DNA from: Octopus vulgaris
Lineage: Eukaryota
Assembly (NCBI GenBank): GCA_951406725.2
Contig: OX597818.1
Location: 111,662,001-111,726,000, forward strand
Reading direction: 5' to 3'
DNA: 64,000 nt
A model generated the notes under the pieces. The model did not search any database. It had not been told where the DNA came from and saw only the letters and a program-made list of their open reading frames with translations. The position numbers and the translations under genes were made by a program. How positions within the stretch are numbered: position 1 is the first letter of the stretch; every line of letters starts with the position of its first letter. Below, piece after piece: positions 28,659 to 52,315 of this stretch.

Positions 28659-31149
28659 ATTTAGAATAACTTAACTGGCAACAAGGAAACAAGAACAGCT
28701 TCAACATTTGGGTAAAAATTATCTACAAAACTAGTTTATGATTTGAGGTAAGAAGTTGGCTGTAAAACATTACTTTCCTTTATAATATCAGATAGAAAAT
28801 GTATCTAATGACTAAAATATGATAGGAATAACAAAATATGAAGGAACATTCTCCGGGAACACATGACAGAATCAATATTGTATTTTTGTCCGCAAATCTA
28901 ATTCTTTATTCAAAACCTTTACAAACAAAGAAAATAATATACATTCCGGAACGTATCTTATATCCTGAAGTCTTACAGGAAAAATGAGCCTGACCAGAAT
29001 CAATATGATAGAATGGTAAAATATCTTGAGGAATTAACATTAGCAAGACAAAAAGGAAAAAGACAAAAAAAAAAGAAATAGCCAATATGCTGTAGTCTGA
29101 AGCAAACTGCTGTCTTTAAAGGTATTCTAAGGTAAACGTAGATAATTCAATGAATAGATGGATGCTTGGAAGTGCATTGTAAAGAAGAGGAACGACTGGA
29201 CACCTCGGAACAGATGGTGATCGACAGGAAGCGACTTATATCCAGCTGGATAAAGAAATATAGTGAACTGACGTAATCTTCGTAGCGAACAGGGAAGAAT
29301 GAACTAAATAGAGTACATTCAGGATTTCTATGAAAAGAGAGACAGATTTAAAAGAAAAATATTAGAAATAACATCTTAAAAACATAAAAATAGAAATATT
29401 CACTCCGCAGATTTAGACGTGTAGGAAATGACATAGTGTGACGTATGTGCTTTGCTGAAAGAGTTGATAATGGCGTAAGTGAAGTCAAATGGTACGCAGC
29501 GACTTTACATCTTTTATTATTGCGCTCAACATTGACTTCCAAAGAGAATGATGATTAAACAGAAAAAAAATAAAGAAAGAAACCTAAAGAAATACATATA
29601 TATTTTTTTTTGAAGTGCACACTGTTTGAATTGAACAGAATCAATACATTATTAACACATGCGATAGATGAATGTAAGCGGGATATTTTAAGAATATTCA
29701 TAACAGTAAAACCTGCTATAACTCCGGGAGGTCATTGAATGACCTCGCTTGAGTTGCATAATGAGGGCATTTTATGAAGAAAATTTAACTTTAAAAATTA
29801 TATAAGCAAAGAAACACACAAAAAAAAACAACGACAACACAAAAGACAAATGCAACACGACGTTGGTTAATGGCAAAAATTGCATTAAAATTATTTGATC
29901 AGAATATCAGATAAAAGAGGCGTTAATTAAGTGGCACATTCTAAAGTAAATTAACATCAACTATAACACTAAAATAAAATTTAAAACAAAACAAAAATAT
30001 AAAACAAAAGAAAAACTTAAAATAAAAATACTTTAGTTGCTATGGCAGCCATTTTATTTTTGTTGAAAACAGCGACAAAGAAACATAAAATAGCAAAATA
30101 AACAAAATCACGATGAAATAAAATGTAAAATAAAAATATGAGGTAACGTTCTGCTGTAAGCTAATGCTTTGGTATTGTTCAGTTGCAAGGCGCTTCGTAG
30201 TAATGGGTCTGTTCTCTCTCTCTCTTTTACTGCCCGTCATCAATCTAACAAGCGCTGTAACTATCACTATGGGAGGTGGTAGGGGCGGGGGCGTGGGGGA
30301 GTGGAGTTGAGGGGTGGGAGAGATCATTGTGATGATAACCCCCACCATGATTTTCATCGTCGTCATCTTCTTACTCCTCATCCTCCGCCCCTCCTCCTCC
30401 TCCTCATCATCATCATCGTCATCGTCATCAAAAGAAATAGTTCTGCCACAATCGCTATGACAACGCGGCGCCTACCACCAGCATCTCAACCACTACCACC
30501 AACACCACCACCACAAACAACAACAAATAACAACAATCCCCCAACACCAGCACTACCAACAACAGTAACAACAACAACACCAACACCAACAACAACAATA
30601 ACAATAACAATACCAACACCACTACCAACAACAACAACCCCAACAACAAAACCACCACCACCACCGACAACAACAACAACAATAACAACAACACGACGAC
30701 GACGACCACCACCACCACCACAAACAAAACAACACGACTAGCAGTACTACAACGACCAATCAACATCCCCATCATCATCACCAGCATCTCTTACATCAAT
30801 ACAAGACACTACTAGGTCGGTCGAAGTGTTAGAAAGAGCAGCGAAATCATAACCTAGAGATTTAGATAAGGAAGGACAAAGACACATTGAACAATGTATT
30901 ATAATAGATATAAAAACAGAAGGAACAACAAGAATGTTATTTGTCAACGTTCCTCCTAAAAATAGCAGTCAAATCCACTCGAATTACATCCGGCCATTTT
31001 TAAATAGCAGCATGACTATGTATGAAAATGAGACGAAGTGGTCGTGGGTGGATTGTCTTCGATCATGTGTGCTCTAACGGACCAACATGGGCGCTCAAGG
31101 GATAAAAGCTGCAGCAGTAGCAACTATTTTTTCTTTTGCTGCTGCTATA

Positions 31150-33965: not shown

Positions 33966-34066
33966 GCGGAAAGAACTGTTTTAACGAAGTCGCGTCTTGT
34001 CCCAGCGTTCGAAATGCGGAGTAGATAAAACAGGGGACAACTGATGAAGGGATTGTTCTTTATGTT
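33966..34066 (+). ncRNA. Scrambled-order (non-circularly permuted) hammerhead, best-preserved copy
   Basis: GAAC/GTTC (II), TGTTTTA/TAAAACA (P4), CGCG/TGCG (III), GTC site at 33994-33996, TTGTCCC/GGGACAA (I), GAAA 34011-34014, CTGATGA 34041-34047. Confidence 0.75.
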
Positions 34067-34258
34067 GGCTGTCTCGTTTCTCTATTTATTTATTTCGTTG
34101 TTCGAAAAAAGTTCATTTTCCATGTTTTTGTTTTTTTATGTTCCCGTTTTTCATTTTGTTCACGTTGTTTTTTACGTCCTGTACACATATATGCAAGTAT
34201 ATACACATATATGCAAGTATATATACATATATATATATATATATACATATATATGCAA

Positions 34259-36067: not shown

Positions 36068-36304
36068 TCTACCAATTCTACGTACTCAGATCAGGGCCAC
36101 GAATGTGCTTTTGTGGTTAACGGGGTAACTTGACCATCTTCTAATTTCCAGAATATATTGTGTTTGTTACACTACTTTGCATCTCTTTTTAATGAATGAT
36201 TATATACTTCTGTTCATATCCATGCACAACTGGATTTGGGAGACATAAACCGACAGAACCCCGTCGTATACATACATGCATACATACATACATACAAACA
36301 TACA

Positions 36305-36443
<139 letters not shown>

Positions 36444-36758
36444 CTTATTTCTCACATATATTTTTTTCTCTCATCCTTTCCCTAATTCCCTTTTTACCCC
36501 CTTTATTGTTCTCCGTCACACCATCTTCCTCCGTTTCTCTCCCTCGTTGCTCACACGTGACCATCATCCATCTTTCTCTTTCTCACGTGATCATCTTTCT
36601 TTTCTTTAGGGTTCGTTCTTTGTCTTATTTGTCCTGTTTTCCATTTGCGTATTGAACTCATTTGTCTTCGTATTTCATGTTGTTTACTGTTGGTGACGTC
36701 CTGTACCCATATATGCACTGGCATAGATGTGGCAACATTTGAAATATTGTAGAGGTAT

Positions 36759-36830
36759 ATGCAGCTGATGAAGATAAATCAAATATATGTTGGCAAACGT
36801 ATTTTGAAGAATCTGAAACCGGTACTGCAT
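36759..36830 (+). ncRNA. Type I hammerhead, canonical core, copy 1
   Basis: ATGCAG CTGATGA A GAT..long stem II..ATC T GAAA CCGG TA CTGCAT; predicted cut after 36824. Confidence 0.8.
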
Positions 36831-37186
36831 TATCCGTTTCTAGGTTTTTCATTTTTCAGATGTTCTTCCTAGAGGTAAGACAATTTTTTTTCATGTTTGT
36901 TGCACACACGCATCTTTACTAGTAAATACGCAGTGAAGCTATACATTAGCGTCGTATTTATTACGTTCTCTATTTTCCAGTAAATATCGGTGCTTCGTTG
37001 TGCCATTTATTTACTTTTATATATGATTTTACCCTCATGGGCTATCCTTTACTGGAAAGAAATACTCTCGTATTGCATTACTATTTTCATTGAAACTTCT
37101 TCACTGTTCTCGTTCTGTTAACGTTTTGGCGTTCAGACGAGTGTACTGGCATAGATGTGGCAACATTTGAAATATTGTCGAGGTAT

Positions 37187-37258
37187 ATGCAGCTGATGAA
37201 GATAAATCAAATATATGTTGGCAAACGTATTTTGAAGAATCTGAAACCGGTACTGCAT
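37187..37258 (+). ncRNA. Type I hammerhead, canonical core, copy 2
   Basis: Identical to copy 1; predicted cut after 37252. Confidence 0.8.
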
Positions 37259-37442
37259 TATCCGTTTCTAGGTTTTTCATTGTTCAGATGTTCTTCCTAG
37301 AGGTAAGACAATTTTTTTCATGTCTGTTGCACACACGCATCTTTACTAGTAAATACGCAGTGAAGCTATACATTAGCGTCGTATTTATTACGTTCGCTAT
37401 TTTCCAGTAAACATCGTTGCTTCGTTGTGCCATTTATTTACT

Positions 37443-37477
<35 letters not shown>

Positions 37478-45692: not shown

Positions 45693-45782
45693 ATAAAACG
45701 GTAAGATAACAAAAGAAAGAAAGAGACCTCAATATTATGTAAATAGAGGAAATTTATCTATACAATATGTTACATTACTCGG

Positions 45783-45856
45783 TAGTCAAGATAAAACTCT
45801 GAGTTTCAGATGCCGAAGTGGAAATCCACAACACCATCTCTTCGGTTATCTGGCTA
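45783..45856 (-). ncRNA. PLE pLTR hammerhead (left arm), U4C variant
   Basis: Mirror copy of 48528-48601. Confidence 0.7.
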
Positions 45857-46045
45857 TTTGAAAACGTTATGAAAAAATACCGTTAAAAATGAAGGGAAAT
45901 TACTCTGTTATAACTCTGCTTTGCCTGCGTACTTATACATCGCTCGCATTTTTCGTCATAAAAATTATATAAAAATACATAAAAATATATAAAAATATAT
46001 AAATATATATAAAATCTTCTTGGGACATAACACAGAAAGCATGTT

Positions 46046-47573
46046 CTATCCGTTTTCTTTAGGGGACCAAAAACGTAACAGAAATTTAGTCACATGTGGG
46101 CATGATCCGAAAAGCTCTGTCCTTGTATTTAGACATGTGGTAGGGTCTAAGCTGCTTTTCCAGATAAGCCATCTCTCCATGTCGCATAAACCGCACCTTC
46201 CGCTGCCGTTAGTATAGGGCTTACATCTGGCCAAAATCTTCCATTGTATGTTATAATCGACACCTTTATCTCTTAAAGACCAAATATGATTGGATAATTG
46301 TGTCGCTTTTCTTTTGTTCCAGTGCCTAAAGCTCAAAGTGTGGTTATTGAACCTGGCCTTGAAATTACCCTCTGTCAGGCCCACGTATTTCTTCGTCGAA
46401 ACGGTGTCTTTAGTGGTTATAGAGTTTACGGTAGCTTCGTATATGATGGTCTTGGACATGCAAGCTCCATTTAGCGGGCACAATTCTTTATTCCTGCATG
46501 AACAGCTGTTTTCTTCTTGTGTTTTTTGTATGTTATGATTGATTATGTTTTTAAAATTGGTAGTTGAACTAAAACTAATTTTTAAATTGTGTCTATTGAA
46601 GAGTTTCCTATAAGCATGGTTAACTGGAAAATGTCTATCTATCAGTGCTAGGAAATATTTACCTATATTGAAGGCCACCTCGGGTGAGTAAGGGGGCGTA
46701 AACCAGATGACCTTCCTATTTCTATTATTCCTTTTCCTTATTGTTGGGCTGGTGATAGGTGTATATTTTATTTTTTCGCTAAAACCACTATCTTTTAAAG
46801 CTTTATTATAAACTGGGGCAACGCTATTGAAGATGTCCTCATTAGATGAGAGGCTAGAAATCCTCTTACTAATATTTTTAACTAAATTTTTGAATACTAT
46901 AGGGGGATGGCATGAACCTACATTAATATAACTTAGGCTATCATTGGGCTTCCTATAAGGCTTATAAATATTATTATTAAGATCTAAGGAAACGTCTAAG
47001 AAATTGACAACCGTCAGGTTAGTGTCTATAGTTATACTAAGTCCGAAGTGTTTCATTAACTGGATAATATCCTTCCTAAAACGATCTTGTGCTGGTCCAT
47101 TTGTATTAGCTGTTAAGGCGAGGGCATCATCTTTGTAGATGGCAAAATGTACGTTAGGGAATGTCTTACTGAAGGTATCTAGGAGAAAGAGTCCAATTAG
47201 ATCACAGATGCCTGCCCCATCATATGAACCCATGCTCACATCGAAAGCGCCCTCCGTGTCGGTGTTTTTTACCCACTTTGCATTCTCACTGAAAAGTAAT
47301 GTCTTTCTAGCATGGAAGATTATATCCTTATCATTGGTACTAATTTCTATGAAATCACTAGCGAAGATTAGGGCTTTATCTAGCAGTTCTTTAGAGATAG
47401 AGGCATAAAAATCAACAATATCGAATTGTGTAAACCTCGCTTTTTTCTTATTCTTAATAGCTTTAAACCAGTCTACGACTTCTATACTATTGGACCATTG
47501 CACTAGCCTAGTATCGGTCTTAATTTTCGTATTTATTTTATCTAAAATTTCTTTGCTAATAATCCCTAGTTCT
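46046..47573 (-). CDS. PLE polyprotein, 5'-truncated: reverse transcriptase plus C-terminal GIY-YIG endonuclease (probably Naiad-type)
   Basis: Uninterrupted frame with RT motifs FDIVDFYASI, MGSYDG, YKDD, FLDV, YRKP; linker CSCx5CPLxGxC; GIY-YIG IIYEA...YVGLT..FKARF.NH; C-terminal CGLC and CPH. The listed N-terminal MGMIRKALSL comes from the inverted filler. Confidence 0.92.
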
Positions 47574-47687
47574 AAGGACAGAGCTTTTCGGATCATGCCC
47601 ACATGTGACTAAATTTCTGTTACGTTTTTGGTCCCCTAAAGAAAACGGATAGAACATGCTTTCTGTGTTATGTCCCAAGAAGATTGT

Positions 47688-48338
47688 CCCCCTTACTCAC
47701 CCGAGGTGGCCTTCAATATAGGTAAATATTTCCTAGCACTGATAGATAGACATTTTCCAGTTAACCATGCTTATAGGAAACTCTTCAATAGACACAATTT
47801 AAAAATTAGTTTTAGTTCAACTACCAATTTTAAAAACATAATCAATCATAACATACAAAAAACACAAGAAGAAAACAGCTGTTCATGCAGGAATAAAGAA
47901 TTGTGCCCGCTAAATGGAGCTTGCATGTCCAAGACCATCATATATGAAGCTACCGTAAACTCTATAACCACTAAAGACACCGTTTCGACGAAGAAATACG
48001 TGGGCCTGACAGAGGGTAATTTCAAGGCCAGGTTCAATAACCACACTTTGAGCTTTAGGCACTGGAACAAAAGAAAAGCGACACAATTATCCAATCATAT
48101 TTGGTCTTTAAGAGATAAAGGTGTCGATTATAACATACAATGGAAGATTTTGGCCAGATGTAAGCCCTATACTAACGGCAGCGGAAGGTGCGGTTTATGC
48201 GACATGGAGAGATGGCTTATCTGGAAAAGCAGCTTAGACCCTACCACATGTCTAAATACAAGGACAGAGCTTTTCGGATCATGCCCACATGTGACTAAAT
48301 TTCTGTTACGTTTTTGGTCCCCTAAAGAAAACGGATAG
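47688..48338 (+). pseudogene. Inverted duplicate of the PLE endonuclease-coding 3' part
   Basis: Protein identical to the C-terminal part of the minus-strand ORF from PPYSPEV onward. Confidence 0.9.
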
Positions 48339-48527
48339 AACATGCTTTCTGTGTTATGTCCCAAGAAGATTTTATATATTTTTATATATTTTTATATATT
48401 TTTATGTATTTTTATATAATTTTTATGACGAAAAATGCGAGCGATGTATAAGTACGCAGGCAAAGCAGAGTTATAACAGAGTAATTTCCCTTCATTTTTA
48501 ATGGTATTTTTTCATAACGTTTTCAAA

Positions 48528-48601
48528 TAGTCAGATAACCGAAGAGATGGTGTTGTGGATTTCCACTTCGGCATCTGAAACTCAGAGTTTTATCTTGACT
48601 A
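48528..48601 (+). ncRNA. PLE pLTR hammerhead (right arm), U4C variant
   Basis: TAGTCAGATAA CCGAAGA GATG..GTGGA TT TCCAC..CATC T GAAA CTCAGAG TT TTATCTTGACTA; near-palindromic stem III. Confidence 0.72.
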
Positions 48602-48624
48602 CCGAGTAATGTAACATATTGTAT

Positions 48625-48669
<45 letters not shown>

Positions 48670-51148: not shown

Positions 51149-51594
51149 TGTGTGTGCAATACCCGAGTTTCGGAAAAAGGCCTTCCCACTTTCTTTAATG
51201 ATAAATTGATTTTGTGACAAATTTTCGTTTGAACATACATAATAGGTTTTAAACCTATAATTCAGAAATAAAAAAAAAAATTCATAAAGAAAAGTAAAAA
51301 AAAAAAAAATTAAAAATTGAAAAAATGAATCAATTCCAGCAGGTTGTGTGCTCAGAGACAGCAAAAGGGCGCCATCTGACAAAAGAAAAAAAGAAGAAAA
51401 GAAAGAAAAAAAAAAAGAAAAGAAAATGAAAGTGTTAATTAACGTTCTAACAGTCTGAGAAATTTTCTTCCGCAGAATCGGAATCTGATTGAATAATAGA
51501 GAATATAGAATAATGGAAAATATAGGAGATGCGAAGTAACGTAGGAAACATAACCAGAACAGAAATACACGCAACATACATACATATGTATATA

Positions 51595-51631
<37 letters not shown>

Positions 51632-51718
51632 CTTCATACTTTATTAGAAAGCAACAAAAATATCACAAAAATTGTTACTCAGAGTTTCACGTTCCTATTC
51701 GTCAAACAATTTTGTTTA

Positions 51719-51748
<30 letters not shown>

Positions 51749-51751
<3 letters not shown>

Positions 51752-52315
51752 ACATCTCGAGGATTGAATCACCCCAGAGGGCACTCACTAAACGAATTGA
51801 AAGCATGACTGATCTCGATTATTGGGACCGCCTTAAAGCCTTGAAACTCTACTCTCTCCAGCGCTGTCGTGAGCGGTACATCATATTTGTACCATGTGGA
51901 GAATATACCGCCAACATTGCCCAAACGACCTGAGCATTAGTTTCAAGGTTCATCCAAGGCTGGGACCATGGGCCATACGTCCCCTGCCCAATTCAGGATC
52001 ACAGCATATAGGTACACTGCAACATGATTTCTTTTCCTCAACAGGCCCTGTCCTGTTTAACATTGTCCCTAAACTGATCAAAGAGGAAAAGGATCCCATC
52101 AACTTTAAACGGAGTCGGGATAGATTTTTTCAAGGAATACCGGATAAGCCACCCATACCTGGATACAACTCAACCAACAAGAACTCACTATTTGAATGGA
52201 CCATAAACAAAACTTGACTTAAACAGGATTTAGATAATCCTATCAGGTGGTGCTATTAAGTTAGACATGGCCTGGACCAATCTTTGGTCGAAACATATCT
52301 AAGTTTATCTAAGTT
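51749..52315 (+). mobile_element. 3' end of a CR1/L2-type LINE, 5'-truncated and frameshifted
   Basis: IESPQRALTKRIESMTDLDYWDRLKALKLYSLQRCRERYII, then GPVLFNIVPKLIK...FKRSRDRFFQGIPDKP; short 3' UTR ending in tandem TATCTAAGTT. Confidence 0.85.

Follow-up and report, generated by a model that had tools for sequence, protein, structure and literature searches.

A tandem 428-nucleotide unit with two hammerhead motifs at an octopus (TA)n microsatellite is probably a non-LTR retrozyme

Introduction

What kind of element leaves two identical hammerhead motifs in a short tandem repeat that encodes no protein and runs directly into a (TA)n microsatellite? Such an insertion lies on the plus strand of a 64-kb stretch of Octopus vulgaris DNA, which was analysed as a whole and is referred to below as the window. 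Retrozymes occur in many animal groups, corals, mussels and amphibians among them, and their copying back into DNA is still a hypothesis in the account of PMC7229834. A PLE origin of these elements has been argued by Li, Clavereau & Pollet (10.64898/2026.07.22.740005), as set out there from co-occurrence and pseudo-LTR similarity only. The sequence-only reading of this locus had called it retrozyme-like. Our analysis upholds the tandem unit, places it in a multi-copy family and predicts a self-paired fold, all at the level of DNA, and it finds the hammerheads closer to the canonical build than to the minimal one of PLEs. We describe the insertion, its relatives and its predicted RNA and then weigh the ways in which it could have arisen.

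Results

Anatomy of the insertion

The insertion consists of two direct repeats (36714–37022 and 37142–37449) that lie 428 nt apart and align over 309 columns with 97.4% identity. They differ by seven mismatches and one gap, none of which falls inside 36759–36830 or 37187–37258, where the hammerheads are found. The first four nucleotides of the upstream repeat are also the end of the neighbouring upstream repeat family. The features are as follows.

36718–37449, plus strand: whole insertion, a 428-nt non-coding unit present about 1.7 times head to tail; truncated on the 5' side, with its 3' end in (TA)n
36714–37022, plus strand: upstream repeat (pre-hammerhead, hammerhead and post-hammerhead segments; a partial unit), from its alignment to 37142–37449
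36759–36830, plus strand: hammerhead 1, type I, from the motif scan and the sequence
36825–37252, plus strand: predicted released monomer, the site-to-site unit of 428 nt, 35% GC, with a predicted rod fold closed by stem I
37018–37024, plus strand: TATATAT linker at the unit junction, from the sequence; the same position is the 3' end of the element at 37445–37449; putative (TA)n priming site
37023–37141, plus strand: spacer, which the insertion contains a single time; family sequence predicted to pair with the post-hammerhead segment
37142–37449, plus strand: downstream repeat, ending in the (TA)n tract, from the repeat alignment
37187–37258, plus strand: hammerhead 2, type I, identical to hammerhead 1, with a predicted cut after A37252
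37445–37626, no strand: (TA)n microsatellite and presumed target, from the tandem-repeat table; probably the former tail of the upstream repeat
36613–36717, plus strand: 3' part of a different abundant repeat family, outside the unit, 82% alike over 51 nt to 34145–34195

Several elements of the sequence-only reading were borne out by this comparison. It had proposed an excisable unit of 428 nt at 36825–37252, and the distance from cut site to cut site is indeed 428 nt. It had also described direct repeats of about 305 bp without an open reading frame, in keeping with the 309 columns aligned here and with reading frames of at most 59 aa. The spacer, which had been given as 125 bp at 37021–37144, measures 119 nt at 37023–37141. 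The insertion had further been placed between two (TA)n tracts; this stands for its 3' end, which abuts (TA)n, but on the left about 275 nt of other repeat DNA (36442–36717) intervene.

When all six frames were read on the rolled 428-nt unit, the longest ATG-initiated frames were 37 aa on the plus strand and 59 aa on the minus strand, and no frame held a GIY-YIG C-terminus. No RT/GIY-YIG frame lies between the repeats, which only 119 nt separate, and an autonomous PLE was therefore rejected for the locus as it stands. We also rejected a tRNA-derived SINE, as the window contains no tRNA and the unit has one A-box-like match per strand with no B box, and a plant-type LTR retrozyme, in which type III hammerheads lie in LTRs accompanied by a PBS, a PPT and a 4-bp TSD, as the motif here is of type I. 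The window is rich in microsatellites (186 tandem-repeat rows), and within its 64 kb we saw neither a further copy of the unit nor an array longer than 1.7 units.

The hammerhead motifs

The alignment and a motif scan verified the positions and the identity of the two type I hammerheads that had been reported at 36759–36830 and 37187–37258. The sequence features claimed for them are present in both: CUGAUGA (at 36765 and 37193) and GAAA (at 36815 and 37243) are intact, and each motif has the 6-bp stem I AUGCAG/CUGCAU, the palindrome ACCGGU and a GUA site. In hammerhead 1, stem I is formed by 36759–64 and 36825–30, CUGAUGA occupies 36765–71, stem II pairs 36772–75 with 36811–14, GAAA lies at 36815–18 and the palindrome at 36818–23, and the cut is predicted after A36824. 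Stem II consists of 4 bp, AGAU/AUCU, beyond which come an internal loop and a 12-bp hairpin. The window copy carries A-U at 10.1–11.1 and GUA, rather than G-C and GUC.

A strict type I scan of both strands of the window (CUGANGA, stem I of at least 6 bp, stem II of at least 4 bp, GAAA and UH) returned two matches in 64 kb, both of them these hammerheads, and none in each of 30 dinucleotide shuffles. No Rfam family matched at its gathering score anywhere in the 64-kb window. The best matches within 36700–37300 were to Hammerhead_HH9 (clan CL00010) at both sites, with 21 bits against a cut-off of 52 and E values of 0.013–0.015; the alignment takes in the core, stem I and the palindromic stem III and leaves a 32-nt helix II insertion unaligned. 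Matches to miRNA families near the TA tracts were dismissed as low-complexity noise.

The minimal hammerhead of PLEs is described with a helix I of 4–5 bp and a helix II of 7–8 bp that starts with an unpaired 5' base (Cervera & de la Peña 2014, PMC4209133). The sequence-only reading had pointed to the cleavage of such minimal hammerheads as dimers. With a helix I of 6 bp, a helix II of 4 bp followed by an internal loop and no unpaired 5' base, the motifs here correspond to the type I form termed "canonical" in that description, not to the "minimal" one.

The unit as a repeat family

A run search covered 24 sequencing runs under four organism labels, of which 20 held part of the stretch searched and 3 held half or more. 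Assembled contigs of four of these runs (X1, X2, X3 and X10) were placed on 36600–37141 at 85% likeness, and 16 further stretch-bearing runs, organisms B and D included, were left out of the contig comparison. None of the surveyed runs is recorded as RNA; X2 and X3 are RNA by guess, so their cover was not counted as transcription. Contigs show neither the ends of molecules nor strand nor circles, and, as expected of contigs, no pile-up of molecule starts or ends was seen among those placed.

X1 (organism A) contributed 3865 contigs to this stretch and X10 (organism C) 3399, counts that include the upstream repeat family; most of these contigs are 90–99% alike and together they cover 29 of 29 bins. 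The spacer is covered as deeply as the repeat in both runs. Its bins at 37056–37112 reach a summed depth of 90,000–188,000 in X1 and 83,000–162,000 in X10, above the hammerhead bins, although such depth is not a copy number. Diverged contigs with 8–11 differences each cross the spacer unbroken (record 8 of X1, records 15 and 16 of X10 and record 23 of X2), and joints between spacer and pre-hammerhead segment were found in X1, X2 and X10. The deep cover in X1 and X10 together with these joints identifies the spacer as family sequence that directly precedes the pre-hammerhead segment rather than host DNA. The possibility raised earlier that the spacer is unrelated host DNA is thus excluded, and the other one, that it is the 5' UTR of an ordinary coding PLE, is made unlikely by the diverged contigs that cross it. 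As judged from these contigs, the whole unit, spacer included, is an abundant multi-copy family in at least two animal species.

The closing junction, from the post-hammerhead segment into the spacer, was found away from this locus in two contigs, both of run X2. Record 22 of X2 bridges it over 36958–37118 with three differences, and a diverged X2 contig passes from 37015 into spacer-like letters with a different linker; 293 further letters of this contig were not placed at 85%, and it may leave the unit. Among the pieces listed for X1 and X10, none bridges this junction with 31 letters on each side. Depth peaks at 36980–37017 and falls about tenfold in X1 and about sevenfold in X10 at 37018–37036; across the junction it drops from 319,000 to 27,000 in X1, and 37025–37038 is far lower than both of its neighbours. 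In a further X2 contig, at least 255 unrelated letters lead into the spacer at 37111. The X2 contigs at 37015 and 37111 may represent a longer or coding relative that shares both ends of the unit.

The unit is also covered by contigs of the two runs guessed to be RNA. Those of X3 include contigs identical to the locus over 36667–36924, which span the junction with the upstream repeat and carry a private A at 36751, and X2 has one contig identical to 36600–36696. If these runs are RNA, a kind that is guessed, the locus is read through. An exact 22-nt pattern had no matches in metagenome contigs and a 20-nt pattern none in viral contigs.

Predicted fold of the unit and its test by family variants

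Folded as a circle, the unit 36825–37252 has a minimum free energy of −103.2 kcal/mol, compared with −82.2 ± 5.6 kcal/mol for shuffled sequences (z = −3.7; 0 of 60 as low). The prediction is a rod that is closed by stem I and built of helices 36879–36924/37144–37179, 36930–37/37100–07 and 36974–84/37048–58, with its apex at the TATATAT linker. When only the spacer was shuffled, 2 of 100 sequences were as stable as the native one.

This fold was predicted from the window sequence alone and the family variants provide a test of it. The variants are unphased and were filtered at a 5% share, and the expectation is that of the same substitutions at random sites. From the 40 variant rows listed we dropped three that lie upstream of the unit and 36751, at which the letter is already that of the folded unit, leaving n = 36. 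Of these, 20 fall at unpaired positions, 11 leave a pair intact and 5 disrupt one, where 14.1 ± 2.5 disruptions were expected (P ~0.0002). With the hammerhead and homopolymer runs excluded, 2 of the 21 listed variants break pairs compared with 9.1 expected (P ~0.0001). The fold of the minus strand is broken by 9 of the 36 listed variants (P = 0.017); the plus strand fits better. Thus, the released monomer is predicted to fold into a rod whose pairs appear to be spared by variation in the family.

The listed variants within the hammerhead are A36772G and T36814C, T36788C, G36799A and A36824C, the last of which changes GUA to GUC. Taken together, A36772G and T36814C, which are unphased, would turn the first pair of stem II from A-U into the usual G-C, and the pair 36788/36799 shifts from U-G to C-G or U-A among the family variants. 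The 16 core positions hold none of the 36 listed variants, a count that is not significant alone. T36826C (9 contigs in X1 and 10 in X10) breaks stem I and has no partner change among the variants listed.

For a transcript carrying both motifs, a double-hammerhead fold is predicted at −129.9 kcal/mol, compared with a minimum of −130.5 kcal/mol and with −108.7 kcal/mol for two monomeric hammerheads, and would be energetically accessible. The idea that the rod drives formation of the double hammerhead was weak and was set aside, as 7 of 40 shuffled interiors came equally close to the minimum.

Insertion site and upstream repeat

The left (TA)n tract occupies 36300–36441 and is followed by the roughly 275 nt of other repeat DNA (36442–36717) and then by the element. 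In X1, 48 and 93 contigs have the end of the upstream family at 36714/36717, and in X10 101 contigs have it at 36717; other copies of this family pass into TA right after 36714–36717. The element was therefore most likely inserted at the start of the TA tail of the upstream repeat. Since the insertion point lies inside a TA tract, a target-site duplication, which exceeds 4 bp when present in non-LTR retrozymes, is unreadable here.

The 3' end of the insertion lies 197 nt past the ribozyme cut, at a TATAT that matches the linker at 37018–37024. Read from this end, the copy runs through the cut site twice and spans about 1.7 units. A 3' end at a TATATAT linker running into (TA)n is what target priming by a PLE would be expected to leave.

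The upstream repeat is of note in itself. The segments 34020–34200 and 36613–36717 belong to a second very abundant TA-tailed family that carries CTGATGAAGGG in a hairpin and has no GAAA half; it resembles a hammerhead half-core, and at 34166–34230 its tail repeats ATATATGCAAGT. It is possibly another PLE-type non-autonomous family. The adjoining 36442–36612 is a pyrimidine-rich non-coding stretch with weak similarity to 29557–29592 on the minus strand.

A Hydra-type PLE in the window

About 9 kb from the unit lies a coding PLE that is not part of the element.

45752–48632, RT and C-terminal GIY-YIG on the minus strand: Hydra-type PLE, young and 5'-truncated, with (TA)n at both ends

On the minus strand this copy has 507 uninterrupted codons with YKDD and a weak GIY-YIG match (E = 0.007, below the cut-off), and in its nearest atlas clusters part of the members have RVT_1, HTH_animal and GIY-YIG. 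It has an inverted partial copy that is identical at 938 of 943 positions (99.5%). A hammerhead variant in which CCGAAGA replaces CUGANGA, with the odd palindrome ACUCAGAGU, occurs at 45845 (minus) and 48539 (plus), and the stop codon lies 201 nt ahead of the ribozyme core. The RWK and DKT motifs were not found in this 5'-truncated copy. It carries CxCx5C, CxxC and CxH motifs, which have been described for the Hydra clade, and Hydra elements are listed from molluscs (Craig et al. 2021, PMC8557442). On the evidence of this copy, a recently active, TA-targeting, hammerhead-bearing PLE is present in this genome.

The unit does not align to it above chance: the score was 28, against 30.7 ± 4.4 for shuffled sequences. 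Alignments that tried this PLE or the upstream repeat as the sequence parent of the unit did not exceed shuffles (155, 89 and 86 of 200 as high), and both were rejected as parents. As there is no alignment to the unit, the nearby PLE stands for a candidate class only; it is an example of the likely partner class, not the parent. Farther along, at 51526–52217, are two short minus-strand frames, which we take to resemble the C-terminal end of a decayed LINE-type reading frame.

Discussion

The DNA-level features of an animal non-LTR retrozyme all appear to be present in this insertion, its recurrence at the short period being hinted at. We put at roughly two chances in three the reading that it is a non-LTR retrozyme, that is, a non-autonomous PLE parasite that would self-cleave, would probably circularise and would likely return to (TA)n through the reverse transcriptase of a PLE.

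On this retrozyme reading, the two ACCGGU palindromes of a read-through plus-strand transcript would pair and a double hammerhead would cut after 36824 and 37252. A single motif would cut poorly, since its stem III is only 1–2 bp, and activation by dimerisation has been described for hammerheads with a palindromic stem III (PMC4209133, PMC7229834). The released 428-nt monomer is predicted to fold into the rod closed by stem I, and a host RtcB-type ligase could then close it into a circle, as would be expected from the coral, mussel and axolotl retrozymes; these units occur as circles, and RtcB closes the mussel and axolotl monomers in vitro (PMC7229834). The endonuclease of a PLE would nick (TA)n, the nick would anneal to the internal UAUAUAU linker and the RT would copy backwards round the circle. 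The partner could be a (TA)n-targeting PLE such as the Hydra-type element at 45752–48632, though not necessarily of that family. Priming at the linker and rolling reverse transcription on a circle would give a copy that ends at the linker and not at the cut, crosses the cut twice and breaks off some 1.7 turns on. Such a double crossing is possible on a circle, on an uncleaved multimer or with template jumping, but not on a cleaved linear monomer. In its most specific form, in which this is a high-copy cephalopod retrozyme family whose UAUAUAU linker primes on nicked (TA)n and whose 428-nt circle is copied 1.7 times round by a Penelope RT of the Hydra clade, the scheme is tentative, and we think it doubtful that every part of it holds.

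Could the locus instead be the debris of an ordinary coding PLE? The repeats would then be its pseudo-LTRs, spacer and repeat together its long 3' UTR, and the hammerheads would process a long coding RNA, with no independent 428-nt RNA; the locus itself would consist of two 3' ends, 428 and 305 nt long and both truncated on the 5' side, in a partial tandem that arose when the short TA tail of the first served to prime the second. PLEs do form partial tandems and 5'-truncated copies and carry hammerheads in pseudo-LTRs (PMC4209133, PMC8557442), and TATATAT does stand at the junction. The 170 nt from the start of the spacer to the core could all be UTR, as the stop codon of the nearby PLE precedes its core by 201 nt. 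The roughly tenfold fall in depth across the junction and the X2 contig in which at least 255 unrelated letters meet the spacer at 37111 also point this way. The rod pairs are compatible with it as well: with the rod apex at the linker, they could bring together the two ends of a long coding PLE RNA. Yet the junction recurs in one contig with three differences and in a diverged contig with another linker, which chance truncation would not give, no frame holds a GIY-YIG C-terminus, and the hammerheads are of canonical and not PLE-minimal build. On balance we judge a coding origin unlikely.

It is also conceivable, though quite improbable in our view, that the unit is a non-autonomous PLE derivative that makes no circles. 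Its mobile form would be a linear multimeric transcript, uncleaved or cleaved once, copied with template jumps as in the non-autonomous PLEs of Chlamydomonas, and its hammerhead would be inherited and maybe slow. Non-autonomous Chlamys PLEs without hammerheads make head-to-tail insertions (PMC8557442), one non-autonomous PLE of Chlamydomonas is active, with 5' truncation and at microsatellites (PMC9977147), and contigs identical to the locus (record 27 of X3) run across the cut site without a break, although ends are not visible in contigs. As for cleavage, only one of nine predicted Xenopus retrozyme dimers cleaved in vitro and eight did not (Li, Clavereau & Pollet 2026, 10.64898/2026.07.22.740005). 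However, the rod is closed by stem I precisely where the cuts are predicted, the core is free of listed variants, stem II and the triplet vary toward canonical forms, and in PMC7229834 the RNA of all three animal retrozymes tested was mainly circular. A mere local event, in which a solo hammerhead-like repeat was duplicated so that 119 nt of host DNA separate its copies and no functional unit exists, would account for there being 1.7 copies here and no other in 64 kb, but it is barely credible: the spacer is deeply covered and family-wide, diverged contigs from two organisms link it to the pre-hammerhead segment, and it pairs with the repeat in the predicted fold.

If the scheme of linker priming by a Hydra-clade RT holds, family and partner would be the first matched retrozyme–PLE pair with a defined priming site, and the mobilisation of animal retrozyme circles would become directly testable; a confirmed circle and partner would reveal the place and manner of RT priming on a retrozyme. 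The family adds an insertion anatomy that can be read, with a 3' end at a TA linker in (TA)n, a length above one unit, 5' truncation and an apparently preserved structure. Should the DNA-level reading alone hold, the result is a useful repeat annotation and no more.

In the literature on retrozymes and hammerheads of cephalopods, on non-autonomous Penelope elements of octopus and on retrozymes with microsatellites we found no report of this family, and none of a cephalopod retrozyme; the supplement of PMC7229834, which holds further invertebrate examples, may list the family. Ribozymes go unmentioned in the available text of the cephalopod repeat survey PMC8967140. Among known systems, non-autonomous Chlamys PLEs such as MRC1 and Chlamys-N4 are likewise short, non-coding parasites of PLEs; they have pseudo-LTRs or stand head to tail, target microsatellites and show 5' truncation, but they are green algal, mostly lack canonical hammerheads and target (C)n or (CA)n (PMC8557442, PMC9977147). 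Hydra-clade PLEs share the (TA)n insertion and a hammerhead near the 3' end (PMC8557442), and a Hydra-type copy lies 9 kb off. These elements encode RT-GIY-YIG, whereas the unit encodes nothing and does not align to the 3' end of the nearby copy. The pseudo-LTR hammerheads of PLEs resemble those here in being of type I within direct repeats, with a palindromic helix III, a predicted dimer and a partial-tandem, 5'-truncated insertion, but here no RT/endonuclease frame lies between the repeats and the unit measures 428 nt compared with ~3 kb (PMC4209133).

The closest likeness is to the animal non-LTR retrozymes. These are described as tandem non-coding units of 150–450 bp (here 428) with a GC content below 50% (here 35%) (PMC7229834, 10.64898/2026.07.22.740005), with one type I hammerhead per unit, a short palindromic helix III, a self-paired predicted fold, a high copy number and co-occurring PLEs, in all of which the octopus unit is alike. 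It differs from them in that it is a new sequence family with no Rfam match at cut-off, in the 12-bp hairpin extension of helix II, and in the A-U at its base together with the GUA site. Its 3' end at an internal TA linker in (TA)n is undescribed in the accounts just cited, its cleavage and circles are predicted, and no long array was seen. With two consecutive complete hammerheads it would be classed as "active" by Li et al. (10.64898/2026.07.22.740005), and the mussel retrozyme family, at 350–390 bp, is nearest to the 428-nt unit in both size and phylum (PMC7229834).
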